From Candidatus Arthromitus sp. SFB-mouse-Japan (GTDB taxonomy: Bacteria > Bacillota > Clostridia > Clostridiales > Clostridiaceae), in the NCBI RefSeq assembly GCF_000270205.1, contig NC_015913.1, positions 1,410,001 through 1,442,000 of the forward strand: 32,000 bases of DNA, read 5' to 3'. The position numbers and the translations under genes are program-made. Positions 18,210 to 23,587 of the stretch are shown here, piece by piece. The notes beneath the pieces were generated by a model that made no database searches, was not told where the DNA came from, and saw only the letters and a program-made list of their open reading frames with translations. Numbering within the stretch: position 1 is the first letter of the stretch; each line of letters starts with the position of its first letter.

Positions 18210-18253
18210 TGCAAAAAAACAAAATTAAAAGATAGAGTAAAATTACTCTATCT
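18210..18253 (-). terminator. intrinsic terminator of the A-B-C operon
   Basis: 10-bp stem agatagagta / tactctatct (18230-18253) overlapping the stop codon of gene C, followed on the minus strand by TTTTAATTTTGTTTTTTT. Confidence 0.75.
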
Positions 18254-19453
18254 TTGAGCTATTTCTTCTATTAAACTTAAACCAGCACCATAATATTCGT
18301 CACTTATATCCCCATTATCGTACATAATATCAAGAATCTCTCCTGTTATAGCTCCACTTCTTATAGCAAAATCAAGAAGTATTAAATCTTCAGCACTCAA
18401 ATATCCATCCTTAACTAAATGATGGTTTTCGGCATCTTCTGTTGACATAAGCATATCATCGCTTACTCCTACTTCAACTCCGTCATATTTATTTTTATTA
18501 GTTCCTGAGTTTATTAAAATTTCCTCATAAATAATTCCGTCATCATCTTCTTTTTCATTTATATCAAACCTTATAACATTAGAAGGTGAATCATCCTCAT
18601 CATCTAAAGAATTTCCTATATCTATACTTATTCCATTATTACTTACATTCGTTTCTACCTTTGTTGGACTCTTCTTATTACTTTGAATTAAACTGTTCTT
18701 ATTTAAATTAATTTTCTTAGTAATAGTTTCTGTTTTTTTAGTCTCTACTACCTCATCTTCATTGGACTCATATGATTCGTCAACTGAATTATCAACATCA
18801 AATGATTCTTGTAATGACTCTTCAACCACTTCATCATGAATTTCCTCTACAAAATCATCAACTATTTCCTCAACATATTCATCTGAAGCATCTTCTTCTA
18901 CTATATTTTGAATTTCATCATTCTCTTCTACTTCGTCACTTGCTCCGAATCCTCCAACATTTATCCCTTTAGGTGGTGAGCTTGGCTTCTGCAAACCTCC
19001 CTTAGATCTCATTGCATGACCCAATGCCTGACTCTCTTGAAGTGATGAGTTATCGGCAATAGATATATTTATCTCTTTAGAGTCACTAACCTCTTGTTCT
19101 GCTAATCTAACATTGTGTTCAGCAGATGTTTCAAGCTGCTCTCTCATCCTTTCTTGTCTTGCTTGCTCTTCTGCCTGTCTTCTTGCCTCTTCCTCTGCTC
19201 TTCTTGCTTCTTCTGCTGCCTTCTGTTGAGACACAATATCTGCAGCAGTCTGTCCAATTCCAGTAGCAACACCTATAACTGTAGATACAATACCAATTAT
19301 AGCTCCTATTAAAGCCTCAGACTCTTTTGGTTTTTGGTTACCTATAGCAGCTGCGCTAGTGATACTAGCAACAGTTGCAAGTAATGCAGCCTTCTTTAAA
19401 ATACCCTTTCTTTTACTTTGATCAGCCTTTGTGGATACATTAACATTTCCCAT
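18248..19453 (-). CDS. paralogue C: two-hydrophobic-segment protein with R/E-rich coiled coil, acidic region and shared C-terminal module; unknown function
   Basis: ATG at 19453, 7 nt after AAGGAGGA (the track TTG at 19477 overlaps the SD). Shares the N-terminal basic + A/T/S-rich hydrophobic segment, the TM helix with a charged helix after it, and the C-terminal module with A and B. Confidence 0.7.
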   Translation of the reverse strand: MGNVNVSTKADQSKRKGILKKAALLATVASITSAAAIGNQKPKESEALIGAIIGIVSTVIGVATGIGQTAADIVSQQKAAEEARRAEEEARRQAEEQARQERMREQLETSAEHNVRLAEQEVSDSKEINISIADNSSLQESQALGHAMRSKGGLQKPSSPPKGINVGGFGASDEVEENDEIQNIVEEDASDEYVEEIVDDFVEEIHDEVVEESLQESFDVDNSVDESYESNEDEVVETKKTETITKKINLNKNSLIQSNKKSPTKVETNVSNNGISIDIGNSLDDEDDSPSNVIRFDINEKEDDDGIIYEEILINSGTNKNKYDGVEVGVSDDMLMSTEDAENHHLVKDGYLSAEDLILLDFAIRSGAITGEILDIMYDNGDISDEYYGAGLSLIEEIAQR

Positions 19454-19488
19454 TTTTTCATCCTCCTTGAATATCAAATCCTTAAATA

Positions 19489-21597: not shown

Positions 21598-21643
21598 AAT
21601 TCTTCTAACCCTCCTTGGACTTATAAATAATCCTCAAACCATT

Positions 21644-23587
21644 TTATTTAAAACTTCCATTACTTTGGAAATACTCAAGCATCTCTAACGCAGCATTCGA
21701 TTGATCTAAAGTTAATATATCTTGCTCATACATATACTCGATCATGAAGAAATTCATCCTACCTCCCTCGATATTTTCTTTAATAGCTTGAAGTTGCCTA
21801 TAAGTAAGAATTCCTTCATCAATAAATTTTTCAAATCTGTCTTTATTTTTAAGCGTTCTAGCCTCAGATACACCTGTCTCAAATTTAGTAATATCATTAT
21901 TATCGTAATCTACATCCTCATAATACATAGCATAAGTACTTCTTCTTTTACTATCTTCATTTTTTTCAAGTAAAACTGCATCTTCAAATCTTTCATCAAC
22001 AATCTCATCTTCGTCAATATTATTTCCACCATCTTCGGAAGGAGTAAAATTACCATCTTTATCATAAACTCCAGATCCATCTGAAGGATAAAAATTACCA
22101 TCTTTGTCATAATATCCTGATCCATCTGAAAGGAAATAATTACCATCTTTATCTAAATATCCTGATCCATCTGAATAATAGAAATTCATATCTTTATCAT
22201 AATATCCTGATCCATCTGCTAAATGAAAATTACCATCTTTATCTAAATATCCTGATCCATCATTAAAATGATAGTTACCATCTTCATCATAATATCCATC
22301 TGCATCTGTTTGCTCAGAACCTCCTTGTGATAAACTATTCATCGCTTCTTGAGCTCTTAACATTTCCTTCTCATGATCCATTTGTTTTTGCTGCATTTTC
22401 TCCTGGGCAGCTATAGACTCAGCCTGAAGCTTTTCTTGAAGTTTCATACTTTCTGCAGTTTGTATAGCACTAACTACACTAGATACCATAAATCCTGCAC
22501 TCATAAGATTCCCAGCAATACTTGAACCTATTTGAATTTTATCTGTAGTAGTTGGTTTCAAACTCTGATCTAAACCTGGTTTTTCATCAGTACCAGGTTT
22601 TTTATTGCTTGAGCTTGACTCTCCAGAAGATGGTTTTTTGTTACCTGTATCATTAGAACTCGGTTTATTAGAGCTTGATGAACTATCAGAACTTGGTTTA
22701 TTGCTACTTGAATTACTGGAATTTGGTTTATTAGAGCTTGATGGACTATCAGAACTCGGTTTATTGCTACTTGAATTGCTAGAATTTGGCTTATTAGTAC
22801 TTGAACTATTAGAAGAAGTATTCCCACTACTTGGCTTATTAGTTGAACTTGAATTTGATCCTGTACTCGGTTTATTAGTTGAATTTGATCCTGTATTTGA
22901 ATTACTAGATGCCGAAGTATCTGTTTTATTACTTCCAAAACCTCCATTTTCACCATTCGATGGTTTACTTGTACTATTTGATGTATTATTAGTTGGTTTT
23001 TTTGTCGTGCTCGTACTACTACCTGTGTTTGATGTCGGTTTACTAGGTGCTGTAACGGTATTTGATGGCTTATTAGTACTTCCTGTAGAAGTATTCGTAA
23101 CAGGTTTATTATTACTAGTAACTTTATTACCAGTTCCACTAGAAGACGAGCTAGAAGAAGTTGATGATCCCTTATTTGATGTAATAATATTTCCAGAACT
23201 TGAACTACTTGATCCACTTGAAGGTTTTGACGTTGTACCACTTGGTTTACTTGAAGTACTTGACCCTCCTACAGGTTTATTCGTTGATGTTGTACCACCT
23301 GGTTTACTTGAAGTACTTGACCCTCCTACAGGTTTCAGCGTCGAACTGCTTGAACTACTTGATCCACTTGAAGGTTTTGAAGTTGAAGTAGGTTTCTTAA
23401 CAGGATTTTTAAGACTGGGTTTTTTAAAACTTGGAAGTTTAAATTTAAGTGCTTGAACCTCCTTAAGGGGAAGTTCTGAAATTCCAATACTCGTCATCGT
23501 AGCGAGAGTCGTTGCGATTCCTAATGATTTAATAAGTTTCTTTTTAAAATTTTTATCATTTTTAACGTTATCTGTATCCCTACTCAC
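21644..23587 (-). CDS. paralogue A: membrane protein with about 285-aa S/T/P/N/K-rich region, TM + Q/E/K helix, six DGSGYxDKDGNF repeats and shared C-terminal module; unknown function
   Basis: 647 aa. GTG start 7 nt after AAGGAGGGAG. N-terminus KNFKKKLIKSLGIATTLATMTSIG...EVQA. TM at aa 351-376 (about 22460-22537). Confidence 0.75.
   Translation of the reverse strand: MSRDTDNVKNDKNFKKKLIKSLGIATTLATMTSIGISELPLKEVQALKFKLPSFKKPSLKNPVKKPTSTSKPSSGSSSSSSSTLKPVGGSSTSSKPGGTTSTNKPVGGSSTSSKPSGTTSKPSSGSSSSSSGNIITSNKGSSTSSSSSSSGTGNKVTSNNKPVTNTSTGSTNKPSNTVTAPSKPTSNTGSSTSTTKKPTNNTSNSTSKPSNGENGGFGSNKTDTSASSNSNTGSNSTNKPSTGSNSSSTNKPSSGNTSSNSSSTNKPNSSNSSSNKPSSDSPSSSNKPNSSNSSSNKPSSDSSSSSNKPSSNDTGNKKPSSGESSSSNKKPGTDEKPGLDQSLKPTTTDKIQIGSSIAGNLMSAGFMVSSVVSAIQTAESMKLQEKLQAESIAAQEKMQQKQMDHEKEMLRAQEAMNSLSQGGSEQTDADGYYDEDGNYHFNDGSGYLDKDGNFHLADGSGYYDKDMNFYYSDGSGYLDKDGNYFLSDGSGYYDKDGNFYPSDGSGVYDKDGNFTPSEDGGNNIDEDEIVDERFEDAVLLEKNEDSKRRSTYAMYYEDVDYDNNDITKFETGVSEARTLKNKDRFEKFIDEGILTYRQLQAIKENIEGGRMNFFMIEYMYEQDILTLDQSNAALEMLEYFQSNGSFK
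22028..22306. repeat. 45-bp in-frame tandem repeat x6 (15-aa DGSGYxDKDGNFxxx units) in gene A
   Basis: taccatcttt or a variant recurs at 22051, 22096, 22141, 22186, 22231 and 22276, an exact 45-nt period. Confidence 0.9.
22670..22795. repeat. 63-bp in-frame tandem duplication (NKPNSSNSSSNKPSSDS[P/S]SSS) in gene A
   Basis: ggtttattagagcttgatg recurs at 22662 and 22725 (period 63). Confidence 0.85.
23228..23335. repeat. 57-bp in-frame tandem duplication (KPVGGSSTSSKP[G/S]GTTS) in gene A
   Basis: ggtttacttgaagtacttgaccctcctacaggttt recurs at 23244 and 23301 (period 57). Confidence 0.85.

Follow-up and report, generated by a model that had tools for sequence, protein, structure and literature searches.

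Low-complexity segments outside the cell membrane are known from several systems. The serine-rich repeat glycoproteins of Gram-positive cocci and lactobacilli (GspB, Fap1, SraP and PsrP), which depend on accessory Sec (aSec) export, carry Ser/Thr-rich low-complexity regions and weakly hydrophobic signal cores rich in Gly, Ala and Thr, and they are displayed on the surface of gut or mucosal Firmicutes. Eukaryotic mucins of the MUC1 type consist of a signal peptide, a disordered ectodomain rich in Ser, Thr and Pro, a single transmembrane (TM) segment and a partner-binding cytoplasmic tail. RsgI-type anti-sigma factors combine a single TM segment with a low-complexity extracellular segment that crosses the wall and with a cytoplasmic domain. 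Here we describe three genes, A, B and C, from a stretch of 32,000 nucleotides (hereafter the window; G+C content about 28%) of the genome of "Candidatus Arthromitus sp. SFB-mouse-Japan", one of the mouse segmented filamentous bacteria (SFB). SFB are textbook commensals that, by attaching to the epithelium of the ileum, drive intestinal T helper 17 (Th17) and immunoglobulin A responses, and their surface biology is important yet poorly known. An earlier reading of the window, made from the letters alone and referred to below as the original prediction, had proposed that A, B and C are paralogous modular membrane proteins of no recognisable family. Judged by sequence and profile comparison, the description of A, B and C as three paralogous modular proteins is correct, with C lacking the mucin-like module, and the genes, which are real and conserved, are candidates for parts of the SFB surface and attachment machinery.

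The protein encoded by C is identical to SFBM_1321 and the M28 peptidase encoded upstream of A is SFBM_1324, so that A, B and the convergent gene D presumably correspond to SFBM_1323, SFBM_1322 and SFBM_1320, respectively. No mention of SFBM_1320 to SFBM_1323 was found in the literature searched, and the genes A, B, C and D are not discussed in the SFB genome papers. The elements that define the unit are as follows.

21644 to 23587, minus strand: gene A (presumably SFBM_1323), 647 residues, GTG start, Shine-Dalgarno (SD) sequence TCAAGGAGG at 23597-23605
19489 to 21597, minus strand: gene B (presumably SFBM_1322), 702 residues, SD CCAAGGAGG at 21610-21618
18248 to 19453, minus strand: gene C (SFBM_1321; BAK57081.1, WP_014018059.1), 401 residues from the ATG behind SD TCAAGGAGG at 19462-19470
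23690 to 23727, minus strand: intrinsic terminator of the upstream M28 peptidase gene and 5′ boundary of A-B-C, an AT-rich 13-bp stem followed by U8
18228 to 18255, minus strand: intrinsic terminator over the C stop codon and 3′ boundary of the unit, a 12-bp stem-loop with a U-run, called by the terminator scan
23664 to 23691, minus strand: promoter-like TTTAAA-16-GATAAT about 77 nt 5′ of the A start codon, 9 of 12 matches in a consensus scan

The head-to-tail order A, B, C on the minus strand, with gaps of 46 and 35 nt, was borne out by the coordinates. The common SD proposed for the three genes was likewise recovered: YCAAGGAGG occurs four times in the window, where 0.31 occurrences are expected, and three of the four sit 8-12 nt 5′ of the starts of A, B and C. 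Terminators had been proposed on both sides, and both fold well, the upstream hairpin (23727-23690) at −11.7 kcal/mol (z=−4.2) and the downstream one (18255-18228) at −14.2 kcal/mol (z=−5.4). The upstream hairpin was not called by the consensus terminator scan, which applies a G+C rule, because it has few G-C pairs. The promoter-like site before A is only a candidate, since such sites are not above chance in this AT-rich region. As originally supposed, A-B-C is probably one transcription unit.

A and B could be aligned end to end at BLASTP level (E=1e-35 over the full length). Their similarity outlasted the removal of the mucin-like halves (E=7e-28, 32% identity), and the 13 identities in 24 positions reported for the helix behind the TM segment were verified by eye. 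Similarity of C to A or B was undetectable by BLASTP, and the paralogy of C is accepted because there is profile-level evidence at both of its ends. At the C terminus, the C-family profile matches A and B at the equivalent position, and hhalign placed the A/B family against the C family, represented by 32 sequences, over 56 columns of the C-terminal module (C-module; E=2.5e-5, 75% probability). At the N terminus, a profile of the first 52 C-family columns (the N-segment) scored the N-termini of A, B and a mini-paralog at 6.5-24 bits, which beat 200 of 200 composition-matched shuffles of each sequence; the same profile gave 2.8 bits and nothing, respectively, on the ordinary signal peptides of D and M28. 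The mini-paralog is a fourth protein, of 169 residues, encoded between M28 and A in the SFB locus L001 (7931-8440), in which an N-segment and about 60 Ser-rich residues precede a TM segment and a tail that is short and charged. The mouse window lacks this gene, its M28-A spacer being just 140 nt.

Five SFB lineages were compared, namely the window, L001, L003, L005 (turkey SFB) and L004 (the most divergent); one extra locus came from a scan of GTDB genomes and the other lineages from exact-protein look-ups. Disruption of the genes in close relatives, which the original prediction had named as a ground for doubt, was not found. The order A-B-C is kept in 5/5 lineages, all three genes are intact in each, and the uninterrupted open reading frames (ORFs) measure about 520-720 codons for A and B and 340-400 codons for C. 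Full-length orthologs of both A and B are present in L001, L003, L004 and L005, and B is additionally represented by P0105 and P0107. In a region-wise comparison across lineages, the TM segment with its helix, the repeats and the C-module retained 63-80% identity at an omega of about 0.1-0.2, while the mucin-like parts and acidic spacers evolved fast (24-59% identity, omega 0.4-0.7); all omega values are approximate because synonymous divergence is saturated. This pattern indicates that A, B and C are under purifying selection. A search of 5.8 billion proteins returned 4 homolog clusters for A, 4 for B together with one repeat-only protein, and 62 for C, and those C clusters that carry a source name were all from SFB, of mouse and turkey. 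In an exhaustive profile search of 1.84 billion representative proteins, the A-B-C architecture was confined to SFB.

Database entries for A and B are just about 260-360 residues long and begin at a Met inside the hydrophobic segment. By inspection of the contigs, these short entries are a gene-calling artefact. The A ortholog of L001, for instance, is an uninterrupted 689-codon ORF that was annotated as a 294-residue fragment plus a spurious antisense gene (L001 8800-9747, minus strand). Gene callers break down on the low-complexity region, so that public models of A and B are mostly truncated or on the wrong strand, and the proteins are therefore largely invisible to proteome-wide surveys; the exact full-length sequences of A and B are absent from a collection of 15 billion proteins. 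In the window, long antisense ORFs cross the low-complexity parts of B and A (20708-21475 and 22605-23456, both plus strand), and these are by-products of low-complexity coding sequence. Two length variants were noted in passing. In the B homolog P0006 the hairpin-repeat region is duplicated internally, which is either real variation or an assembly artefact. Among closely related turkey-SFB strains, the acidic 'EEVVEEIVTEDIVNN' repeat of C differs in copy number (327 to 398 residues; P0030-P0070, alignment columns ~200-300), and here too the variation could be real or due to assembly.

The sidedness of the proteins depends on how the N-segment is read. Its three copies in the window are:

23450 to 23587, minus strand: N-segment of A (residues 1-46), with a basic n-region, a core rich in Ala, Thr, Gly and Ser, a Pro breaker and the ending KEVQA
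21445 to 21597, minus strand: N-segment of B (residues 1-51), with SSRKKFLNRVAMATALVGVTGIAG followed further on by KKASA
19313 to 19453, minus strand: N-segment of C (residues 1-47), the best conserved part of the C family

The 32 C-family sequences show no variation at R15, L19-KKAA, LAT.ASIT and Q.PKES.A, nor at the Ala in position −1. Across the five lineages, all 15 copies combine a basic n-region (net +2 to +6) with an Ala/Thr/Gly/Ser-rich core and a Pro or Gly breaker. A polar c-region of 6-8 residues follows in each of them and leads to an [AVST]-x-Ala ending (VQA, AEA, AQA, TQA, ASA, TSA, VSA or SEA), never with Pro at +1. In 15/15 copies this amounts to the layout of a signal for signal peptidase I, complete with n-, h- and c-regions and with a small residue each at −3 and −1; position +1 is free of Pro. 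The predicted insertion energy after Hessa over 19 residues (dG19) was +3.2 to +6.1 kcal/mol in all copies. As the core is thus too polar for a TM helix, an export signal is the simplest role of the N-segment; moreover, an Ala at −1 and a small residue at −3, kept despite divergent c-regions, are hard to explain if signal peptidase is never met. The original prediction had found the segment reminiscent of a Sec or Tat-like signal, though without the twin-Arg. Its Sec half agrees with this layout, whereas the twin-arginine translocation (Tat) half had to be dropped: there is no RR in any copy, and SFB have been reported to possess Sec and to lack the Tat machinery (PMC3158464). From these features we infer a Sec-type signal in the N-segment, with probable cleavage by signal peptidase I behind the small-x-Ala site. 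Its core is unusually polar and yet conserved in the family, which suggests that targeting is post-translational or otherwise specialised.

Behind the N-segment, the three proteins are built from the following parts.

22553 to 23449, minus strand: basic mucin-like region of A (residues 47-345), Ser+Thr 48%, net charge +26, internal repeats of 57, 63 and 30/33 nt, omega about 0.4
20293 to 21444, minus strand: basic mucin-like region of B (residues 52-435), net charge about +31; a repeat of 36 nt encodes TAPTKPNTGSTV
22334 to 22552, minus strand: Gly/Ser/Ala-rich hydrophobic segment of A (residues 357-375, a marginal TM segment) and Gln/Glu/Lys-rich helix; Kyte-Doolittle hydropathy (KD) 1.57, dG19 +4.0, helix in the AlphaFold2 (AF2) model
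20098 to 20292, minus strand: TM helix of B (residues 442-460) and Gln/Glu/Lys-rich helix; KD 2.14, dG19 +0.1
19115 to 19312, minus strand: TM helix of C (residues 48-70, with GxxxG motifs) and Glu/Arg/Ala-rich helix (residues 71-113); KD 2.27, dG19 about 0
22028 to 22333, minus strand: array of about 6 copies of the 15-residue repeat DGSGYYDKDGNFxxS in A; Tandem Repeats Finder gave period 45 and 5.6 copies at 22046-22297
19843 to 20097, minus strand: degenerate PDGS/DKDGN beta-hairpin repeats of B, with a sub-threshold DUF6799 match
21647 to 21835, minus strand: C-terminal helical module of A (residues 585-647), AF2 confidence (pLDDT, predicted local distance difference test) about 76-82
19492 to 19677, minus strand: C-terminal helical module of B (residues 641-702), placed by profile comparison
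18251 to 18430, minus strand: C-terminal helical module of C (residues 342-401), AF2 pLDDT 85-89

A mucin-like region had been ascribed to all three proteins. It is present in A and B, where this stalk measures 168-400 residues across lineages, with 21-63% Ser+Thr, 6-16% Pro, a net charge of +15 to +32 and short repeats at the DNA level. In C the region is absent and two hydrophobic segments lie 8-10 residues apart. The second hydrophobic segment, once described as a clear TM helix throughout, is borderline to good as one in B and C (dG19 −0.4 to +1.0 kcal/mol, KD 2.1-2.3 across copies) and only marginal in A, with a dG19 of +3 to +5 in all five lineages and a KD of 1.6; the C-terminal TM segment of M28, taken as a control, gave −3.75. 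Together with the following helix, the segment of A is 63-64% identical across lineages. AF2 predicts the helix behind the TM segment to span about 50 residues in A and residues 71-113 in C (pLDDT 75-79). The repeat array of A, which is 72-73% identical across lineages at an omega of 0.1-0.2, was modelled as 12 short strands forming a beta-hairpin array (pLDDT ~80). Where A and B have hairpin repeats, C has a long acidic region rich in Glu, Asp and Val, and the net charge of the part after the TM segment ranges from −12 to −50. Only for the helix behind the TM segment, for the hairpin array and for the C-module were the AF2 models confident. A, B and C contain neither an LPXTG motif, as noted originally, nor a Cys residue.

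The C-module had been put at about 51 residues; the conserved block proved real and is 56-58 residues long, with three G-x-[IL]-[ST]-x-x-[EDQ] helix-turn units. It is confidently modelled as a small helical bundle that is remotely like the helix-turn repeats of SHOCT and DUF2680, so that the earlier verdict of no recognisable family stands for curated matches and needs this one qualification. The C-module of C scored 12.8 bits (E=0.1) against Pfam SHOCT (PF09851), not reaching the cutoff of 27 bits. SHOCT did not match the A-module at E<=10, nor full-length A, B or C at E<=1, and Pfam gave no match of DUF2680 (PF10925) on A, B or C. With Foldseek, the A-module resembled a 47-residue phage protein annotated 'Short C-terminal domain' at a probability of 0.90, a template-modelling score of 0.73 and a root-mean-square deviation of 2.0 Å, but at E=0.5. 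Nothing was returned from the PDB by Foldseek at E<0.09 for either model, and nothing significant by sequence. A helix-hairpin-helix repeat of topoisomerase V aligned with one 20-residue helix-turn unit of the C-module (E=2.6 by structure, E=0.3 by sequence) and was set aside as a resemblance of fold class only.

Searched against the 1.84 billion representatives, the C-module profile retrieved the SFB A, B and C families and, in addition, secreted proteins in which 'LVxxGxITxxQAD' units stand in tandem. Several of these are DUF2680 proteins according to Pfam; the DUF2680 proteins were reached at E=1e-8 to 1e-4, mostly by summing short stretches. The top match, P0101 (6,424 residues, E=7.6e-27), is a false positive composed of 23 summed matches to 'LVTTGTLTSTD' in an adhesin with Ig-like repeats, and E-values from multiple stretches are therefore to be taken with caution. 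The most convincing remote relative found is P0115, an actinobacterial secreted protein of 243 residues with two copies of a 46-residue block that closely resembles the SFB C-module, 'LVQAGTIDQHQADILDSGIRSGSIDDQQLVSNGTLSSAQ' against 'LVKDGYLSAEDLILLDFAIRSGAITGEILDIMYDNGDISDE' in C; within it, 'ILDSGIRSGSI' faces 'LLDFAIRSGAI' of the SFB C-module. P0115 itself has a weak match to the Pfam family RHA1_ro05818_N (E=0.0016). An oligomerising role of SHOCT has been tested and was not supported (Eberhardt et al. 2013, PMC3581485). Since neither SHOCT nor DUF2680 has an established function, no mechanism follows from the likeness.

Membrane association of A, B and C is plausible from the sequences. 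On the arrangement that we favour, the three would be bitopic envelope proteins that associate with one another, with the stalk outside and the acidic part in the cytoplasm; we rate this model, sidedness and tethering taken together, as about evenly poised between right and wrong. The N-segment would direct export of the stalk through Sec and would probably be cleaved by signal peptidase I. The basic, disordered stalk (0 residues in C, about 60 in the mini-paralog and 170-400 in A and B) would be translocated and might thread, as a polycationic and possibly glycosylated 'brush', into or through the anionic Gram-positive wall. The second hydrophobic segment would then act as stop-transfer and anchor in an organism without sortase, as has been reported for SFB (PMC7474095). 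The Gln/Glu/Lys-rich helix, the hairpin array of A and B or the acidic repeats of C, and the C-module would stay in the cytoplasm, where A, B and C may bind each other or a common partner through the membrane-proximal helices and C-modules. C would be an adaptor without an ectodomain that may also stabilise the weak anchor of A; the weak segment of A could halt translocation, especially if packed on the small-residue-rich TM helices of B and C. The net function would be that of an SFB-specific heteromeric trans-envelope tether or coat anchor, a heteromeric complex being the simplest functional reading because of co-transcription, the homologous membrane-proximal helices and the shared C-module. 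The n/h/c layout of 15/15 N-segments favours this sidedness, which is the first of the two topologies considered in the original prediction: mucin-like part outside, repeats and C-module inside. The charge asymmetry, from +15 to +32 in the stalk to −12 to −50 after the TM segment, was also counted in its favour, together with the proposal by Jonsson et al. that very basic SFB exoproteins become attached to the surface again (PMC7474095).

Several observations weigh against it. The h-region of the N-segment is weak for a signal, with a crude Hessa energy over 12 residues (dG12) of +0.3 to +2.0 as compared to −0.06 and −3.6 for the signals of D and M28. Such strong conservation of the core is atypical for a signal peptide that is discarded, and in C the mature protein left after cleavage would begin directly with the TM helix, an unusual situation. 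The locus neighbours examined include no gene for a glycosyltransferase, for secretion or for wall synthesis, and the association of A, B and C is pure inference. The other objections concern sidedness and lend weight to the inverse arrangement, in which the N-segment, as a peripheral amphipathic or interaction helix, and the Lys-rich Ser/Thr region would be cytoplasmic. The second segment would then be a type II signal-anchor, and the helix, repeats and C-module would stand outside as a stalked adhesin-like or Ca2+- or glycan-binding head. The positive-inside rule, read naively, assigns the Lys-rich region to the cytoplasm and the acidic part to the exterior, and the charge distribution would thus obey it. 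Modules like the C-module are usually extracytoplasmic, because all remote relatives (the DUF2680-like proteins, P0115 and P0125) have signal peptides and are secreted. Hairpin arrays rich in Asp, Gly, Tyr and Asn resemble extracellular solenoid repeats, and the secreted D has a loosely similar Y-D-x-D-G-N hairpin motif. Variation in the number of acidic C repeats among closely related turkey-SFB strains is of a kind often met in surface-exposed regions. The inverse arrangement nevertheless leaves the universal Pro/Gly breaker and small-x-Ala site unexplained, and in Firmicutes, linkers rich in Ser, Thr, Pro and Lys (TAPTKP, for example) typically lie outside the cell. It would need only one of the two adjacent hydrophobic segments of C to insert, and it asks most of A, whose anchor (dG19 +3 to +5) is very poor as an internal signal-anchor. 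The A segment (dG19 +4) would, as we see it, hardly serve to export 270 acidic residues and could serve as a stop-transfer. All considered, the inverse arrangement seems to us unlikely, if still a serious competitor.

The small residues and GxxxG-type motifs in both hydrophobic segments would suit helix packing, and this speaks for another arrangement, which keeps the sidedness of the favoured model and leaves the N-segment uncleaved. The two segments would form a two-helix membrane hairpin, and the mucin-like region would be an extracellular loop of 8-400 residues held at both ends. Conservation of the N-segment core beyond that of ordinary signal peptides fits such a hairpin, and so does the spacing of the segments in C, just 8-10 residues. 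Stable insertion of the N-segment is not predicted, though (dG19 +3.2 to +6.1), and the conserved −3/−1 site argues for cleavage. A weak match of C residues 7-105 to SLATT, a family with two TM segments (NF033634; E=0.0027, 17.7 bits), would agree with the hairpin, but its score lies far under the 41-bit cutoff and PADLOC found nothing; we rejected it as an assignment, and A and B differ from SLATT by the 170-400 residues between their two segments. We judge an uncleaved hairpin to be distinctly unlikely.

Failure of the stop-transfer after cleavage would leave A, and possibly B, unanchored, secreted or held at the wall through the basic region, with C as the only integral protein. The second segment of A, as polar as the signal core in five lineages (dG19 +3 to +5), allows this, and the return of basic secreted SFB proteins to the surface, as proposed in PMC7474095, would fit it too. 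Yet this segment and the following helix rank with the best conserved regions that A has (63-64% identity), they are homologous to the good TM helix of B (dG19 ~0), and the architecture is strictly parallel in A, B and C, which makes an unanchored A very improbable in our estimate. Finally, we give hardly any credence to the view that the ORFs are fast-evolving 'filler' or decaying sequence without coherent function, alike only in low-complexity composition: their large low-complexity parts, truncated or wrong-strand gene calls and want of known domains would fit it, but the ORFs are intact in five divergent lineages, omega is 0.1-0.2 in the folded parts, the similarity survives composition correction and shuffling, and AF2 models the conserved modules with confidence.

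The favoured model of bitopic proteins can be carried further. A, B and C might constitute an SFB-specific trans-envelope complex, a bacterial counterpart of tethered mucins, with polycationic, possibly glycosylated stalks in a 'fuzzy' surface layer touching the host brush border or wall polymers and with cytoplasmic hairpin arrays and C-modules coupling that layer to a scaffold inside the cell, at septa or the tip of the holdfast. We consider this picture improbable, and direct involvement in the holdfast or in attachment to the host is conceivable but found no support. If such a complex exists, the operon would form part of the architecture of SFB attachment and filaments and might supply host-specific surface antigens; if the proteins are ordinary membrane scaffolds, the value of the work lies in the corrected annotation and in the definition of an orphan family. 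The specific roles of adhesin, sensor or scaffold put forward in the original prediction found no backing, as no binding, enzymatic or signalling domain was found in A, B or C and the anchor of A is weak. Because A-B-C occurs in every SFB lineage examined and nowhere else, it is a concrete candidate for SFB-specific surface or envelope architecture. A testable candidate for envelope or attachment architecture and the correction of a widespread mis-annotation are, in our view, the main yields of this analysis.

The neighbourhood of the unit offers one possible partner.

16764 to 18170, plus strand: gene D (presumably SFBM_1320), convergent with C, encoding a secreted, acidic, Ser/Asn-rich protein

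D is present in 4/5 lineages, with two copies in L003; the short L004 contig ends just after C. The protein has an ordinary signal peptide (...SAKA|S), a Ser/Asn-rich stretch, a conserved helical middle and an acidic region. It also contains a duplicated Tyr-rich unit of about 48 residues (YFDTDGNELLYD...), and its OCRE score of 23.8 bits lies under the threshold of 24.7. Being acidic, secreted and adjacent, D is possibly a partner of the polycationic stalks. On the other side, the M28 peptidase gene (23728-25206, minus strand) encodes an N-terminal signal, a weak SpaA/Ig-like middle part and the strongly hydrophobic C-terminal TM segment with a dG19 of −3.75; by its sequence it is to be read as a TM-anchored surface aminopeptidase in a sortase-less organism. 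M28 is syntenic with A-B-C in the 4 lineages whose contig extends upstream of A, and a terminator separates it from A. Upstream of M28, a CRISPR-Cas block and a holin/amidase pair in L001 replace two M3 oligopeptidase genes that are found in the window, L003 and L005. Near D, feoA-feoB are followed directly by fliF (window 12444-16445, minus strand) in every lineage with enough contig, and fliE is also present beside fliF in L001 and L005. Further along, a thiamine pyrophosphate (TPP) riboswitch (67.1 bits; window 11990-12095, minus strand) lies 5′ of a thiamine transporter gene (11322-11984).

Repeats of the A/B type were met once outside SFB, in P0009, whose low-coverage contig encodes a DUF6799 repeat protein beside it; the context is uninformative. 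The low-coverage metagenomic contig L002 (6001-8930) encodes proteins made almost wholly of 'GYYD(E/K)DGNF' and 'MPDGTVITPDGKV' (DUF6799) repeats, the same two motifs as in the repeat regions of A and B, with no signal peptide or TM segment visible. A non-SFB repeat protein on L002 matches DUF6799 at E=1e-15, while the B repeats reached only 14.3 of the required 26.8 bits (PF20606; E=0.036), and DUF6799 was not assigned to B.

Searches of Pfam, NCBIfam, PADLOC and PHROGs gave no family at threshold for A, B, C or D, which for A, B and C is in keeping with the original prediction. The name 'Helicase related protein' given to C in SFB-mouse-SU (AID45291.1) is supported by no profile. The Th17 antigen P3340 was rejected as a candidate, since none of the six frames of the window contains its epitope strings QFSGAVPNKTD and IRWFGSSVQKV, and the SFB-specific Clusters 1 and 3 of Pamp et al. 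belong to a different, DUF4214-type family.

Compared with the systems introduced at the outset, A-B-C shares parts with several. Ser/Thr-rich regions, weakly hydrophobic signal cores and a proposed surface display, as in gut or mucosal Firmicutes, are points of likeness to the serine-rich repeat glycoproteins. In contrast to these, the SFB proteins have neither an LPXTG motif nor, in the part taken to be exported, a folded region for ligand binding; they are Lys-rich and basic, with a TM segment and a large acidic C-terminal domain. Neither aSec nor glycosyltransferase genes were found near A-B-C. Assignment as an accessory Sec substrate was rejected on these grounds as well, since there is no KxYKxGKxW signal or family match and only housekeeping genes adjoin the locus. 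A basic motif at the boundary of the n- and h-regions (S-R-K-K-F-L-N in B, K-I-L-K-S-I-G-V-A-T-T in A) and a weakly hydrophobic core recall Tat and YSIRK-G/S signals; Pfam gave no YSIRK_signal match, and the spacing is off by one residue. RsgI-type factors are oriented the other way round, with a cytoplasmic N-terminus and without signal peptide; they also have an RsgI_N domain and the gene of a sigma factor as partner, and here these features are all missing. The EAGR box of Mycoplasma terminal-organelle proteins offers another likeness, in its aromatic, Gly- and Asp-rich 'GYYD.DGN' motif, in the coiled-coil and acidic regions of the same proteins and in its occurrence in a bacterium with a polar attachment structure; the match itself (PF16713; E=2, 8.6 bits against a cutoff of 27, 10 model positions, no PDB sequence match) was taken as chance. 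With SHOCT and DUF2680, A-B-C may share a short C-terminal helical element of 'G-x-[IL]-[TS]-x-x-[EDQ]' units with a conserved Gly and acidic residue. The SFB module differs in being a fixed three-unit block, rather than a single 28-residue unit or a long tandem array, and DUF2680 (YckD) proteins are secreted. For the MUC1-type mucins the resemblance is an analogy of architecture only: the SFB proteins show no homology to them and no SEA or EGF domains, and their glycosylation is hypothetical. Nothing found demonstrates a new kind of system; A-B-C is a genuine SFB-restricted orphan family in which known kinds of parts are newly combined.

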